7,991 nucleotides of DNA, from the IMG/VR virus record IMGVR_UViG_3300011226_000007; one strand, given 5' to 3'. Positions within the stretch are counted from its first letter, which is position 1; every line of letters starts with the position of its first letter. This stretch comes from a virus (taxonomy: Duplodnaviria > Heunggongvirae > Uroviricota > Caudoviricetes). Positions 790 to 7,991 of the stretch are shown here, in pieces. The position numbers and the translations under genes are program-made. The notes under the pieces were generated by a model. That model saw nothing but the letters and a program-made list of their open reading frames with translations. It searched no databases and was not told where the DNA came from.

Positions 790-2019
790 ATGCTTACATC
801 AATAAATGAAATTCATGCTCCAATTCCATACACTAATAAGACAGCAAACTTATTTCTTGAGGGTAAAAATCTCATAATAACTGGTGGTAACGGGTGTGGA
901 AAAACTAGTTTCATTAGATCTATTTATGATTTCCTTAAAAGTAAGATAGATACACCTAATGATCATAATATTAATAATTTATACAGTACGTTAGAGTCCT
1001 ACAAATATCAATTGAATAGCGACGGGCGTGACGGCTTTAATTACGACTTTTATTCTGAAGAAATAAAAAAGATTGAATTAAAAATTGAACAATTAAAAGC
1101 CATTAGAATAGAAACAAAAGAAAAAGAAGGTGAAATTCGTTCACTATTGAGATTTCACAAAGCTCTACGTGAAGCATCAATTACCTCGCCAGTCGCCGTT
1201 CCTAGGCTATCAGCTTTAATTAAAGAAAAGTCACATTTTTCTAATGAAGTAGATGGTGATGATTTCTTTGAGAATTATTTGGTTAGCTTAAAAACCGCTC
1301 AGAGCTATGCAATTTCTTTTGATAATGACCATAATAAAGCTCAGCGGATACAGGAATGGTTTGATAAAATTGAAACTGATATGCAGGAACTTTTTGAAGA
1401 TAAAAACCTCTTACTAACGTTTGATAGTAACGAAGGAAAATTTTATCTCAATCAAGATGGTAAAGATAAGTTTACTTTTCAAACATTATCTTCTGGCTAC
1501 TCATCAATATTGAGAATTTATGCTGACTTAATAATGAGAGTAGAGATGTGGGAGTTAACACCTGACAGTATCGAAGGTATTGTTTTTATTGATGAAATAG
1601 ATGCGCATTTACATGTTTCTTTGCAAAAGCAAATATTAAGATTTTTTAGTCACGCCTTTCCTAAAGTACAATTCATTGTGACTACACATTCTCCGTTTGT
1701 TGTTACATCCGTCACAAATGCCATCATTTATGATCTGTCGACCAACACGCAAATTAGTGATGTATCTTCATATTCTTACGGTATCATCCTTCAAGAGTTA
1801 TTTGGAGTAAGTCCAATATCTAAAGTTCTTTCAGATAAGTTAGAACAACTTCAAGATATTATTGATAATATTAACAACAACAATATTGAAACTGCCAATA
1901 ACATAATACAATCCTTAGCACCTTTAGATGAATCCATGGACATAAATGCAAGTGCATTTATTGACTATGCAAAAATGCAGGTTTTAAAATATAAAAAAGC
2001 AAATTCTCAGGAGAAATAA
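790..2019 (+). CDS. ABC-type ATPase (AAA_15/AAA_21-like) with coiled-coil insertion; Septu PtuA-like defence ATPase candidate
   Basis: Track ORF 691..2019; preferred start ATG 790 (RBS AAGGGA at 780..785), because the 691..789 extension overlaps the V start and its upstream region. Walker A TGGNGCGKTS at 883..909; K/E-rich coiled-coil segment (EEIKKIELKIEQLKAIRIETKEKEGEIRSLL); signature-like TLSSGYSS; Walker B plus D-loop IVFIDEIDAHLH at 1579..1614; H-loop FIVTTHSPF. About 30% GC. Stop TAA 2017..2019 overlaps the next ATG. Confidence 0.8.
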   Translation: MLTSINEIHAPIPYTNKTANLFLEGKNLIITGGNGCGKTSFIRSIYDFLKSKIDTPNDHNINNLYSTLESYKYQLNSDGRDGFNYDFYSEEIKKIELKIEQLKAIRIETKEKEGEIRSLLRFHKALREASITSPVAVPRLSALIKEKSHFSNEVDGDDFFENYLVSLKTAQSYAISFDNDHNKAQRIQEWFDKIETDMQELFEDKNLLLTFDSNEGKFYLNQDGKDKFTFQTLSSGYSSILRIYADLIMRVEMWELTPDSIEGIVFIDEIDAHLHVSLQKQILRFFSHAFPKVQFIVTTHSPFVVTSVTNAIIYDLSTNTQISDVSSYSYGIILQELFGVSPISKVLSDKLEQLQDIIDNINNNNIETANNIIQSLAPLDESMDINASAFIDYAKMQVLKYKKANSQEK

Positions 2020-2680
2020 TGTTCAAGGTTAATAGAACATATCCTGCACCAAAGTCGCTTTCCAAGAAAGTACGTTATGACGGTGCTGATGTACATGAAG
2101 CACTACAGGAATGCTTTTATGGAAAATGTTACATTTGCGAAACAAAGAACCCTTTGGATATAAACATTGAACATTTTAAACCCAAGGGTGATGATGTGGA
2201 AAGAGCTTTTGATTGGGATAATTTATATCTATCATGTTCCAGATGTAACAATATAAAACTATCAAAATATGACAACATTCTTGANNNNNNNNNNGCTGTA
2301 AAGAAAAGGTATGGGATCGAGTAAAATTACTCCCAGGATATTCTTATAAAGCAAAAAAAATAACAGTAACAGCACTATTTAATGATATTGAAACGCAGAC
2401 GACCGCAGAGTTACTTGAGAAAGTATATAATAGCGATCATACCATGAGTAAAAAATTAACTTCTGCGGCACTTCGTACTCAAGTAGTGAAAACAACCCAA
2501 AAACTAATAAAAAATATTAATGAATATTATGAAGAAGATACTCCAACAGAACAAAAAAAATACTTAATTGAAAAAATGAAGATGATGATAAAAAGAGACG
2601 CAGCTTTTTCATCATTTTGCAGATGGATCATTATGGAAGATGCTGAATTAGGTCCAATTCTTGAACCATTTATGGATTAG
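2019..2680 (+). CDS. HNH-family nuclease (Septu PtuB-like candidate); single gene split in the track by a frame-breaking 10-N run
   Basis: ATG 2019 with RBS AGGAG at 2009..2013. HNH motifs: CYIC at 2127..2138, EHFKPK (His at 2172..2174), CSRCNN at 2235..2252. The track frame stops 9 codons after the N run (2285..2294), but the +2 frame is stop-free from 2297 through the track ORF 2444..2680 (49 codons without a stop in 30%-GC DNA). So 2019..2324 and 2444..2680 are most likely one gene of about 220 aa. Stop TAG 2678..2680. Confidence 0.7.
2285..2294. other. N run (10 nt), unknown sequence inside the HNH gene
   Basis: Directly visible; flanking coding frames differ, so the true length is not 10. 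Confidence 1.
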
Positions 2681-2874: not shown

Positions 2875-3324
2875 TTATTTTATTAACAACTGAAACAATA
2901 TATCTTTTACTATATTTTCTGCATATTCATTCATTCCAAGTAAACGACGCTCTGCGTATCGTACTTCCGGTCCTTTGCGACTAACACGATCACGCAGGCC
3001 GTAATGGTGAACACGGGCAATACGCTGTACCTTACCTTCAAACTGCACGCTGGCAGAATCGGCGCTGGCGGCAGTTTTCAGGTATTTTGTGGTGCGAAGC
3101 TTTGTAAACATCTGACGTTTGATGCGCCCCTTTTTACTACGTGCTGTTACCCTTCGCGGTTCATAGCTGCTGNNNNNNNNNNNNNNNNNNNNNNNNNNNN
3201 NNNNNNNNNNNNNNNNNNNNNNNNNNNNNNNNNNNNNNNNNNNCATCATGCGACTTCTCGTGGCTGGTTCCAGATTCGCCAGCAAGGCACTCAACCAGTC
3301 GTCCACCTTCTGCAGTTCAGCCAC
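2875..3324 (-). CDS. S: Tail completion / virion morphogenesis protein S
   Basis: 149 aa ORF in the P2 gpS position (downstream of R) and of the expected size (P2 gpS about 150 aa); GTG start at 3324 overlaps the R stop (GTGGCTGA). Contains a 71-nt N run (3173..3243), so the internal sequence is unknown. Identification is by position, size and general family resemblance. Confidence 0.65.
   Translation of the reverse strand: MAELQKVDDWLSALLANLEPATRSRMMXXXXXXXXXXXXXXXXXXXXXXXXSSYEPRRVTARSKKGRIKRQMFTKLRTTKYLKTAASADSASVQFEGKVQRIARVHHYGLRDRVSRKGPEVRYAERRLLGMNEYAENIVKDILFQLLIK
3173..3243. other. N run (71 nt) inside gene S
   Basis: Directly visible. Confidence 1.
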
Positions 3325-3748
3325 GTTTCACCGTCCACATTTCTTCAGGTTCATCGGGTTCTGCTACAGCTTCAACGCTCGACACACTGCCGTCAGTGCT
3401 GACCAGCACACGTTCCGTCAGTTGCAGGTTAAGGCTGATATCACAGACATCGTTGCGCAGAATATCCACCTCAAAGGTAAATAGTTTTTCCCGTAACGCC
3501 GGGTTATTGATGGCATCGGGCTGGTTATCCCGCAGCCACAGCAAAACCGGGGCCATCAGCAGATTCTGGTCGCCGCTGAAATCCTCAATCACCGCGTTCA
3601 GGGTGTAACGGTACTCCCACGACATGGAGCTGGCCCCCGTGGCAACCAGCGAACCGTTATCCACAAACAGATGCAGTTTGTCCGGGTTATTGCGGACATA
3701 AGGCACCGCTTTATTGAGGGCGTGGCGCAGGGATTGTGGTTTGTTCAC
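3317..3748 (-). CDS. R: Tail completion protein R
   Basis: Track ORF 3317..3769 begins at TTG; preferred start is GTG at 3748..3746 with RBS AGGAG 8 nt upstream, giving MNKPQSLRHALNKAV... which parallels the P2 gpR N-terminus (MLKPDSLRRAL...). The rest (FVDNGS..., LLWLRDNQPD..., TERVLVS) resembles gpR. Confidence 0.85.
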   Translation of the reverse strand: MNKPQSLRHALNKAVPYVRNNPDKLHLFVDNGSLVATGASSMSWEYRYTLNAVIEDFSGDQNLLMAPVLLWLRDNQPDAINNPALREKLFTFEVDILRNDVCDISLNLQLTERVLVSTDGSVSSVEAVAEPDEPEEMWTVKRG

Positions 3749-4001
3749 TGTTTCGCTCCTGACACGCAATAATCATGTCCACTTTGTCTGCACAGACCGC
3801 CCAGGCGGCCTCCGTTTCATCCAGCAACGCGTTCAGATCACCGTTAGTGCGCGGCGTTGCCTGATCCAGCCGACACGGCGTCACTCGCGGACAACCACTG
3901 ACGGTAAGCTGTACCTCCGGTGAGTGCCGGACGTTCCCGCAGCCGGGTAATGTCAGCAGGCAAAGGAGTATCAGCCCAGCGGCGTAAATCCTCGTTCTCA
4001 C
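3711..4001 (-). CDS. lysC: o-spanin (Rz1/LysC-like outer-membrane lipoprotein), embedded in the +1 frame of lysB
   Basis: 96 aa; N-terminal signal peptide with lipobox LTLPGC; Pro-rich C-terminus; starts inside lysB and extends past its stop, the P2 LysB/LysC overlapped arrangement. Overlaps the 5' end of R by about 38 nt in another frame. Confidence 0.65.
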   Translation of the reverse strand: MRTRIYAAGLILLCLLTLPGCGNVRHSPEVQLTVSGCPRVTPCRLDQATPRTNGDLNALLDETEAAWAVCADKVDMIIACQERNSEQTTIPAPRPQ

Positions 4002-4272
4002 GTTTCAGTTCCTCGATCCGGTGTTGTCGTTGTCTCAGCAGTGCGCTGGTCTGTTCTGCTTCGGCATAGAGCCGCGCCTGCTCCCGGTTATTGGTTTCAG
4101 TCAGAATGGACAGACCGATCAGCTGGCTGTTTTTCTTCGTCAGTTCCTGCGCTTTACTTTTCAGCGCCGCGCGCTGCGTTTCGATGGTGTGGCTGGCGCT
4201 GTTAAGCCGCCACGACTGCCAGCCCAGCGCAACGAGTGCCAGCGCCACCACTACTGCCAGCGCACGCGTCAT
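3844..4272 (-). CDS. lysB: i-spanin (Rz/LysB-like)
   Basis: 142 aa; N-terminal transmembrane segment ALAVVVALALVALGW followed by a charged coiled-coil periplasmic domain; ATG at 4272 overlaps the K stop (ATGA). Confidence 0.75.
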   Translation of the reverse strand: MTRALAVVVALALVALGWQSWRLNSASHTIETQRAALKSKAQELTKKNSQLIGLSILTETNNREQARLYAEAEQTSALLRQRQHRIEELKRENEDLRRWADTPLPADITRLRERPALTGGTAYRQWLSASDAVSAGSGNAAH

Positions 4273-4715
4273 AGTCCAGCTCCTTTAAGGCACCAGGCCA
4301 TCTCCCGCGCACGGCGGTTATCCAGCCCCTGATTAAAAACACCTTTCACATAAACCCAGCGCGGCAACTGTCGGCACGCATCCGCCCAGCGCCGCTGATT
4401 GAGCAATTTCACCAGCGTGGAGCTGNNNNNNNNNNACCTTTCCAGCGCCCTCTCCACACGCAGCACGTTGGAGATCATCCCTTCCGCTGCCTGTCGTTCC
4501 GTAATGGTTTTGCCCGGGATGACGCCCGATGTATTACCAATGCCGTCGGTCCAGACACCCGCGCTGCACTGATACGGCTGCAGACGACAGCCTTCGTAAT
4601 CAGCAATCAGTTTCAGCCCCTCCACGGAGGTGTGAAGCTGCTGAAAACCCGGCAGCGTGGCAGTAATAGCCAGCACGGTCCCGACAAGGCAGCGTTTAAC
4701 GATTGATGGATTCAT
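4269..4715 (-). CDS. K: Endolysin, T4-lysozyme/GH24-like with N-terminal SAR (signal-anchor-release) segment
   Basis: 148 aa as read (10-N run at 4426..4435 inside); N-terminal hydrophobic stretch VKRCLVGTVLAITATLPGF; lysozyme motifs EGLKLIADYEGCRLQPYQ...GVWTDGIGNTSG resemble P22 gp19 / phage 21 R-type lysozymes. ATG 4715 with RBS GGGAGGA. Confidence 0.85.
   Translation of the reverse strand: MNPSIVKRCLVGTVLAITATLPGFQQLHTSVEGLKLIADYEGCRLQPYQCSAGVWTDGIGNTSGVIPGKTITERQAAEGMISNVLRVERALERXXXXSSTLVKLLNQRRWADACRQLPRWVYVKGVFNQGLDNRRAREMAWCLKGAGL
4426..4435. other. N run (10 nt) inside endolysin gene K
   Basis: Directly visible; lysozyme-like sequence continues in the same frame on both sides. Confidence 1.
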
Positions 4716-5675: not shown

Positions 5676-6304
5676 TTAGCGGCTGTCACTGCGCAATTTG
5701 CGCTCCAGCTGCTGCTTTTCTTTTTTCACGCCGCAGCGGGGATCGAGCTGCAGCGCANNNNNNNNNNGCTTTCACTCAGGACAGCGCCAATCGCTTTATG
5801 CAGACGCGCCCGTGACTGGTCCGGCATATCCAGACCGTCTGTCAGTTCCAGCGTCTGCAGCAACAGATCGGCATCAAAGCCGGTGGCGGCAAGCATTGCG
5901 CTCTGCGCGGCGTCTGCCATTTCCTCTGCCAGCACGGTCTGCACGTTGCGGTTACCCAGCGGCATCACCCAGCCATGACGCAGGGCATGACGCCCGATCT
6001 CCAGCGCCCCGGCATAATCTCCGGCATCAATGCGCCACAGCATCACGTACATCAGCACGTCATCCTGTTGAGCGCCTCCGGCAGCCAGGACACCCTCCGC
6101 CCAGGCGGCGTACTTCGGCAGCAACTCCACTTTGATTTCCGCTTTTTTGACCGTGGACTGAACGCCCTTGAGACGGCGTCGGTCTTCCGCTAGTTGCAGC
6201 AGCATCAGGTCATAGCCCGACGCGTGGCGAACGCTGCCGCCCTCGCGGGCGGCCTGTTCAGCCTGAACGCTCAGGCGATGCTGCCGTGCGGGACTCAGGC
6301 TCAT
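5676..6304 (-). CDS. M: Terminase small (endonuclease) subunit M, interrupted by a frame-breaking N run
   Basis: N-terminal 176 aa (MSLSPARQHRL...LHKAIGAVLSES) resembles P2 gpM. After the 10-N run (5758..5767) the track frame stops at 5726, but a different frame reads LDPRCGVKKEKQQLERKLRSDSR then TAA at 5678..5676, resembling the gpM C-terminal region. So the true end is 5676 and the N run is not a 1:1 mask. ATG 6304 with RBS GGAGCG inside the end of N. Confidence 0.85.
5758..5767. other. N run (10 nt) inside terminase gene M
   Basis: Directly visible; frame-breaking (see M). Confidence 1.
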
Positions 6305-7413: not shown

Positions 7414-7991
7414 TTACCGCCTGNNNNNNNNNNNNNNNNNNNNNNNNNNNNNNNNNNNNNNNNNNNNNNNNNNNNNNNNNNNNNNNNNNNNNNNNNNNNN
7501 NNNNNNNNNNNNNNNNNNNNNNNNNNNNNNNNNNNNNNNNNNNNNNNNNNNNNNNNNNNNNNNNNNNNNNNNNNCACGCTGGCGGTAGTCCTGGCGGCTG
7601 TCTTCATGACTCAGCTTATTCACCAGTTCGTTAAAGGCGGTCTGCTGTGCCTGCAGGGCAGTCTCCAGCTCAGACAGACGTTCTTCCTGCTCAGACAGGG
7701 ATTTTTCGGTGCGTCCGCTCAGGTTCTGCTGCTCAGTGGCGACCAGCTCCACGGCCTTATGCACATCAGAGAACCGGGCATCGTCTGACTGCTCTTTTTT
7801 GGTGAACAGCGCCGTGACGCGGGCAAACAGGGACGGTTTGTCGTCCTGGACTTCTTCCAGTTCGATCACCGTTTCCTCTGCGGCGGTAAAGAGATTGGCG
7901 GGATTCTGCTTGCGGTTTGCCAGCGGGTTATGGGCTGCACTGGCGCTGAATGTCAGCATTTCCGTACCCAGACTGGCGGGGTCATCAATGG
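7414..7991 (-). CDS. O: Capsid scaffolding protein O, partial: N-terminus beyond window end, C-terminus obscured by a 151-N run
   Basis: Track ORF 7414..7959 begins at an internal Met; the frame stays open upstream to the window edge (...IDDPASLGTEMLTFSASAAHNPLANRKQNPANLF...), resembling the middle of P2 gpO. N run at 7424..7574 covers the 3' part, so the stop at 7414 is provisional. Confidence 0.8.
   Translation of the reverse strand, partial: IDDPASLGTEMLTFSASAAHNPLANRKQNPANLFTAAEETVIELEEVQDDKPSLFARVTALFTKKEQSDDARFSDVHKAVELVATEQQNLSGRTEKSLSEQEERLSELETALQAQQTAFNELVNKLSHEDSRQDYRQRXXXXXXXXXXXXXXXXXXXXXXXXXXXXXXXXXXXXXXXXXXXXXXXXXXXRR
7424..7574. other. N run (151 nt) covering the 3' part of gene O
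   Basis: Directly visible. Confidence 1.

Follow-up and report, generated by a model that had tools for sequence, protein, structure and literature searches.

A compact PtuA ATPase, very probably from a stand-alone type I Septu system, in the V–S cargo region of a P2-like Escherichia coli prophage

A stretch of 7,991 nucleotides (the window in what follows) from the Caudoviricetes record IMGVR_UViG_3300011226_000007 of IMG/VR is the late-gene region of a P2-like Escherichia coli prophage. Its plus-strand coding sequence at 790–2019 (409 amino acids and a stop codon) very probably encodes PtuA, the ATP-binding cassette (ABC) family ATPase of a stand-alone type I Septu defence system, co-produced with the HNH protein PtuB from a horizontally acquired cargo in the V–S (orf30) region. 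A first-pass annotation, drawn from the sequence alone, had read the product as an ABC/SMC-type ATPase resembling PtuA, AriA and the OLD/Gabija ATPases. That reading is upheld and can be narrowed to a full-length PtuA by PADLOC, by profile comparison and by predicted fold. The decisive context, which the annotation had left unused, is the overlapping downstream HNH gene and the P2-like prophage setting.

The PADLOC PtuA model PDLC00268 matches the open reading frame (ORF) end to end (E 1.3e-139; residues 2–404 on profile positions 2–409 of 411). Pfam returns generic matches only, namely AAA_21 (E 5.5e-19), AAA_15 and a sub-threshold SMC_N; the AAA_21 and PADLOC scores place the set of PtuA motifs far beyond chance. 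A profile built from 36 homologues, searched against sequences in the Protein Data Bank (PDB), recovered the PtuA chains of retron Ec78, retron Ec83 and the stand-alone E. coli Septu with E values from 1e-20 to 8e-24, compared with 1.5e-4 for AriA. The AlphaFold model of the protein (mean pLDDT 81, pTM 0.69) has an ABC fold that is nearest to the solved PtuA structures: the best 50 Foldseek matches are all PtuA, and the (unlabelled) values in the family comparison were 16.1–18.3 for PtuA, 12.3 for PARIS AriA, about 11 for SMC heads, about 10 for ABC transporters, RecF and MutS2, and 9.4 for Rad50. Neither a non-ABC fold nor a best homology to a non-ABC family, either of which the first-pass annotation had named as fatal to its proposal, emerged from the structural model or the profile searches.

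ATG 790 is taken as the correct start codon because it is the one annotated by RefSeq in the nearest relative and because the PtuA profile aligns from residue 2. The version given by the ORF-listing program, which begins at TTG 691 and yields 442 amino acids, was rejected, its extension overlapping the start of gene V on the opposite strand. A 100% identical protein (P0001) is already present at NCBI under the label 'ATP-binding protein', and RefSeq names the pair only as 'AAA family ATPase' and 'HNH endonuclease'.

The nucleotide-binding motifs, all on the plus strand, were located by translation of 790–2019, and their conservation was scored on an alignment of the 36 homologues, which are 39–70% identical to the query. 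The Walker A motif (P-loop) GGNGCGKTS spans residues 32–40 (nucleotides 883–909, with G32 to K38–T39 at 883–906), and a variant signature motif LSSGY, in place of the canonical LSGGQ, lies at 1486–1500 (LSSG, residues 233–236, nucleotides 1486–1497). The Walker B strand IVFIDE, containing D268 and E269, runs directly into the D-loop segment IDAHLH (together IVFIDEIDAHLH; residues 264–275, nucleotides 1579–1614), and the H-loop TTHS, with H300, occupies residues 298–301 (1681–1692) after a strand modelled at 293–298. The four motifs thus stand where the first-pass annotation had placed them and in the canonical ABC order. The residues G32, G37, K38, T39, S234, G236, D268, E269, D271, H273, H275 and H300 are invariant in all 36 homologues, as are N34 and G35 of Walker A and T299 and S301 of the H-loop; this invariance of the catalytic residues indicates that the motif set is real and under selection. 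H273, five residues beyond the Walker B aspartate, resembles the 'D-loop H321' that was mutated in E. coli Septu I (bioRxiv 10.1101/2022.08.21.504612). No conserved glutamine is found at the Q-loop position among the homologues; A125 and R127 are invariant there instead.

The last position of the signature motif, residue 237, is tyrosine in 25 of the 36 sequences, phenylalanine in eight, glutamine in two and histidine in one. Loss of the canonical glutamine recalls the stand-alone Septu PtuA, in which this position is leucine and ATPase activity was not measurable (PMC12819146). By analogy, the replacement suggests that the present PtuA would sense ATP rather than turn it over quickly, acting more as an ATP sensor than as a fast hydrolase.

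Between Walker A and the signature motif the first-pass annotation had seen about 200 residues of lysine- and glutamate-rich, heptad-like sequence and had proposed a long coiled-coil insert of Rad50/SMC type. The gap measures 193 residues, with lysine and glutamate making up 19% inside it versus 11% elsewhere; the long coiled coil was overstated. In the AlphaFold model the gap contains four β-strands (106–111, 118–124, 208–212 and 217–221), which from their position we take to be part of the ATPase head, and two helix pairs (61–78/85–104 and 156–178/181–202) with 18–23 residues per helix. The first helical insertion (residues 55–105, nucleotides 952–1104, plus strand; model helices 56–59, 61–78 and 85–104) shows the lowest conservation anywhere in the protein (mean column value 0.38). 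The second (residues 128–207, nucleotides 1171–1410, plus strand; model helices 140–147, 156–178 and 181–202) sits at the place of the SMC/Rad50 coiled coil, yet each of its arms is only some 22 residues long. By an ad hoc heptad measure, just two windows of 21–28 residues, 83–103 and 177–204, scored above 95% of shuffles; they coincide with helices 85–104 and 181–202. The richness in lysine, asparagine and isoleucine would in part be expected anyway from a gene of 32% GC. The arms of SMC and Rad50 proteins are hundreds of residues long and terminate in a hinge or a zinc hook. SMC-like ABC ATPases typically have two insertion sites, termed IS1 and IS2 (PMC11974896), and in the model the PtuA insertions at these sites are short hairpins, with no Rad50/SMC arm.

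The solved E. coli Septu PtuA (PDB codes 8EE4, 8EEA and 8SUX) has 465 residues. The present protein is 56 residues shorter, and the location of this deficit before the signature motif implies that its helical insertions are the smaller ones. The two proteins match different PADLOC PtuA models, and single-sequence similarity between them is detectable only over residues 225–316.

A linker modelled with low confidence (residues 327–343) connects the head to a C-terminal extension of three predicted helices (345–359, 366–382 and 385–405; residues 345–405, nucleotides 1822–2004, plus strand). Conservation in the extension is just 0.45. The asparagine-rich segment NINNNNIETANNIIQ, which the first-pass annotation had pointed out in this region, is found by translation at residues 360–374 (1867–1911); the asparagine run, which the homologues do not conserve, lies between helices one and two of the extension. 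In the solved retron and Septu complexes, C-terminal triple helices from two adjacent PtuA subunits form a claw around the helical C-terminal domain of PtuB, and defence is lost when the claw is mutated (PMC11974896, PMC12819146). The extension is likely to be the corresponding PtuB-holding claw, and the earlier suggestion that the last 100 or so residues recognize a partner would, by this analogy, fit the solved PtuAB complexes.

The partner gene, ptuB (2019–2680, plus strand; 217 amino acids in the nearest relative), is adjacent and co-oriented, its ATG overlapping the ptuA stop codon (TAATG). The PADLOC PtuB model PDLC00321 matches both its N-terminal part (E 2.6e-46) and its C-terminal part (E 1.2e-25), and Pfam places an HNH domain in the N-terminal half. 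C37/C40, H52, N68 and C73/C76/N77, in which the cysteine pairs are zinc-binding, are retained in four distant partners down to 43% identity. In the ORF listing ptuB looks split, because a placeholder of ten Ns at 2285–2294 stands for two nucleotides: the run reads 'TT' in NZ_CP116100, the closest E. coli genome, and this restores a single frame of 217 amino acids. A frameshifted ptuB pseudogene in the window was accordingly rejected, the split being due to the placeholder and the A8 tract at 2353–2360 being intact. In four of 13 E. coli carriers this tract is A7, giving a frameshift just past the HNH domain; in one of these (L013, NZ_CP063153) it lies at about nucleotide 327 of ptuB, and RefSeq then annotates a 111-residue HNH protein followed by a 78-residue hypothetical protein. 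The A7 alleles could represent real inactivation, phase variation or homopolymer sequencing error.

The pair occupies an AT-rich cargo of 2.2 kb (703–2874; about 32% GC compared with about 57% in the flanks), delimited with the aid of the annotation of the nearest relative and containing only ptuA and ptuB, both on the plus strand. It is bounded on the left by the baseplate gene V (124–702) and on the right by gene S (2875–3324), both of them tail genes on the minus strand. P2-like phages have three classical cargo regions, of which the V–S (orf30) interval is one (PMC6823313, PMC3091744), and P2 tail genes are reported to hold defence hotspots (PMC13586616). The cargo contains no reverse transcriptase gene, a scan of the whole window against Rfam returned no RNA family, and nine related loci, drawn from three other mobile contexts, likewise show no reverse transcriptase beside the pair. 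With no reverse transcriptase gene and no known RNA family, the system is assigned to stand-alone type I Septu rather than to a retron. Three features of that type are found here: an AAA_15/AAA_21 ATPase of ABC type that has the Walker A, Walker B, signature and H-loop motifs, a neighbouring HNH gene in the same orientation, and no associated reverse transcriptase or non-coding RNA.

The surrounding P2-like prophage is complete. Among 5,426 complete E. coli genomes the cassette is present in 13, each time adjoining gene V of a P2-like prophage; a similar gene V occurs in about 1,036 E. coli genomes. Two IMG/VR viral contigs carry the cassette, one of them with the order V–ptuA–ptuB–S. Against sequenced phage genomes, megablast gave no match and tblastn only three partial matches of 25–41% identity in unannotated gut phage contigs. 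Homologous pairs are found in Enterobacter (PtuA 68% and PtuB 71% identical), likewise at a P2-like V–S site, in Klebsiella (57% and 56%) in an integrase-adjacent island, and in Vibrio (43% and 43%) in a recombinase-flanked island, and in all three of these other mobile contexts an ATPase of 408–410 residues is kept with a partner of 217–219 residues. PtuA and PtuB thus diverge in parallel, as a conserved gene pair that moves between mobile elements.

Several observations weigh against the assignment to stand-alone Septu. Structural alignments give just 16–23% identity to the PtuAs that have been solved or tested, and the protein is shorter than its studied relatives, not only than the E. coli Septu PtuA but also, by about 140 residues, than the retron PtuAs; on account of this length and identity, oligomer size, trigger and nuclease target are not safely transferred from those proteins. 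Both NCBIfam models, which derive from retron Ec78, score well below their cut-offs (97 bits against 500 for PtuA, 27 against 150 for PtuB). The C-terminal region, used alone as a profile against PDB sequences, gave nonspecific helical and coiled-coil noise (E ≥ 0.13), so that the claw assignment draws on position and predicted fold. A sigma-70 scan revealed no convincing plus-strand promoter upstream of ptuA, the total number of matches being no greater than in shuffled sequence, and the literature searched holds no experiments on this PtuA subfamily.

The weak NCBIfam scores also bear on the possibility that the two genes are orphaned effectors of a type I-A retron (type II Septu), which a reverse transcriptase and multicopy single-stranded DNA (msDNA) encoded elsewhere would normally restrain. 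The best PDB sequence matches are indeed the retron Ec78 and Ec83 PtuAs (E about 1e-14), and the sole NCBIfam PtuA model, a retron one, does match (E 1.1e-27), but the gene content largely refutes the idea: type I-A retrons (Ec78/Eco7, Ec83/Eco4) have a reverse transcriptase, an msr/msd non-coding RNA and an extended PtuA, whereas the present cassette has two genes with no reverse transcriptase, non-coding RNA or msDNA, and the nine related loci show no adjacent reverse transcriptase either. The shortfall of about 140 residues lies, moreover, before the signature motif, the stretch in which retron PtuAs bind the reverse transcriptase and msDNA by means of an N-terminal extension and a helical flap (PMC12819146). 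Retron PtuAs also form tetramers and hydrolyse ATP. We regard a retron origin as exceedingly improbable. It is highly improbable, too, that the gene belongs to another AAA_15/AAA_21 system, such as PARIS AriA, an OLD/Gabija-type ATPase–nuclease or an AbiEii-like toxin–antitoxin ATPase. The AriA model does match (E 3.1e-22), but the PtuA model is better by more than 100 orders of magnitude, and the partner is an HNH protein and not the DUF4435/Toprim protein AriB of PARIS. Pfam detects no Toprim domain fused to the ATPase, as at the C-terminus of GajA; in the model the last 65 residues form a short bundle of three helices.

A true Rad50/SMC-like protein, tethering or entrapping DNA with a long coiled coil, is next to impossible given a total length of 409 residues and the model, in which the longest helices have 18–23 residues, strands interrupt the insert, the hairpins have about 20 residues per arm in place of a long antiparallel coiled coil, and neither hinge nor zinc hook is present. 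That the pair lies among phage late genes, in a recognized cargo region, raises the further question of whether it serves the prophage itself, as an addiction or stabilization module or as a weapon solely against competing P2/P4-type elements. Retron-type PtuAB is toxic once released (PMC12640716), and the frameshifted ptuB alleles suggest a possible cost. The cassette is, however, also found in non-phage islands, and every Septu system that has been tested protects against unrelated lytic phages (PMC13096335; bioRxiv 10.1101/2022.08.21.504612); such a role would in any case overlap with defence without excluding it, and as the full explanation we consider it very unlikely.

The regions bordering the two Septu genes, and their neighbourhood, show some further features. 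Gene V and ptuA diverge from a gap of 87 bp (703–789) that must hold both promoters; it contains the blocks ATGAACTnTATnTCAAT and ACGACACAAG, common to the E. coli and Enterobacter versions, and its sole sigma-70-like match (773 to 746, minus strand) is directed at gene V. Downstream of ptuB an AT-rich non-coding tail of 191 bp (2684–2874), with ORFs of only 21 and 37 codons, is restricted to the 13 carrier genomes; the ptuB–gene S spacing in the Enterobacter cassette is only 17 bp. The only terminator-like site in 600–2950 is a GC-rich hairpin with an 8 bp stem at 2691–2709, between the convergent ptuB and gene S, which is terminator-like on the minus strand. The minus-strand genes of the window are V, S, R, the lysis genes, X, L, M, N and part of O; the overlapping minus-strand lysis ORFs at 3844–4272 and 3711–4001 correspond to LysB and LysC of the nearest relative, an arrangement to be expected in P2-like lysis cassettes. 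Runs of N at 2285–2294, 3173–3243, 4426–4435, 5758–5767 and 7424–7574 interrupt several genes, and at least the first is not true to length (10 N for the two nucleotides 'TT' in two related E. coli genomes), so that ORF tools produce false splits and frameshifts. In the Klebsiella island (L005–L007, from about 13020 to the end of the locus) a second ABC-type ATPase of 461 residues, matching AAA_15/AAA_21/AAA_23/SMC_N, directly follows a MobA relaxase gene and may be a further defence module.

Studies of related systems indicate how the Septu pair described here might work. An E. coli Septu forms a 6:2 PtuA:PtuB complex in which the nuclease is inhibited by ATP (PMC12640716); one E. coli Septu cleaves tRNA-Tyr and requires its Walker A, Walker B and HNH residues for defence (PMC13096335), and phage protection dependent on the ATPase and HNH active sites has been demonstrated for other E. 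coli Septu systems (PMC13096335; bioRxiv 10.1101/2022.08.21.504612). By analogy, two PtuA heads would pair with ATP sandwiched between Walker A on one side and the partner's signature motif on the other; a higher oligomer would be built through the short helical insertions, and each dimer would use its two C-terminal extensions to clamp the helical C-terminal domain of a single PtuB. With ATP bound, the nuclease would stay silent. When another phage infects, either a phage protein or a drop in ATP would free or activate PtuB, which might then cut DNA or a tRNA and so stop phage growth. More speculatively, and with rather low probability in our estimate, the compact clade (408–410 residues, tyrosine or phenylalanine in the signature motif, no recognizable Q-loop glutamine, short insertions) may assemble and be regulated differently from the hexamer of 465-residue subunits, and the V–S location may mean that its trigger or expression spares the tail proteins of its own phage while sensing those of competitors.

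The gene is already a catalogued defence gene, with an identical protein at NCBI, a PADLOC model that matches it end to end and a system type for which structures have been solved; only the compact PtuA clade and the V–S location are mildly new. The gain is chiefly a correct label, Septu PtuA/PtuB, for generically annotated RefSeq genes, with little new knowledge beyond it. The less-studied V–S (orf30) site of P2-like phages is nevertheless seen to be able to hold a complete defence system, and the compact PtuA, while leaving current understanding unchallenged, may offer a convenient minimal model of how a nuclease is held and released.
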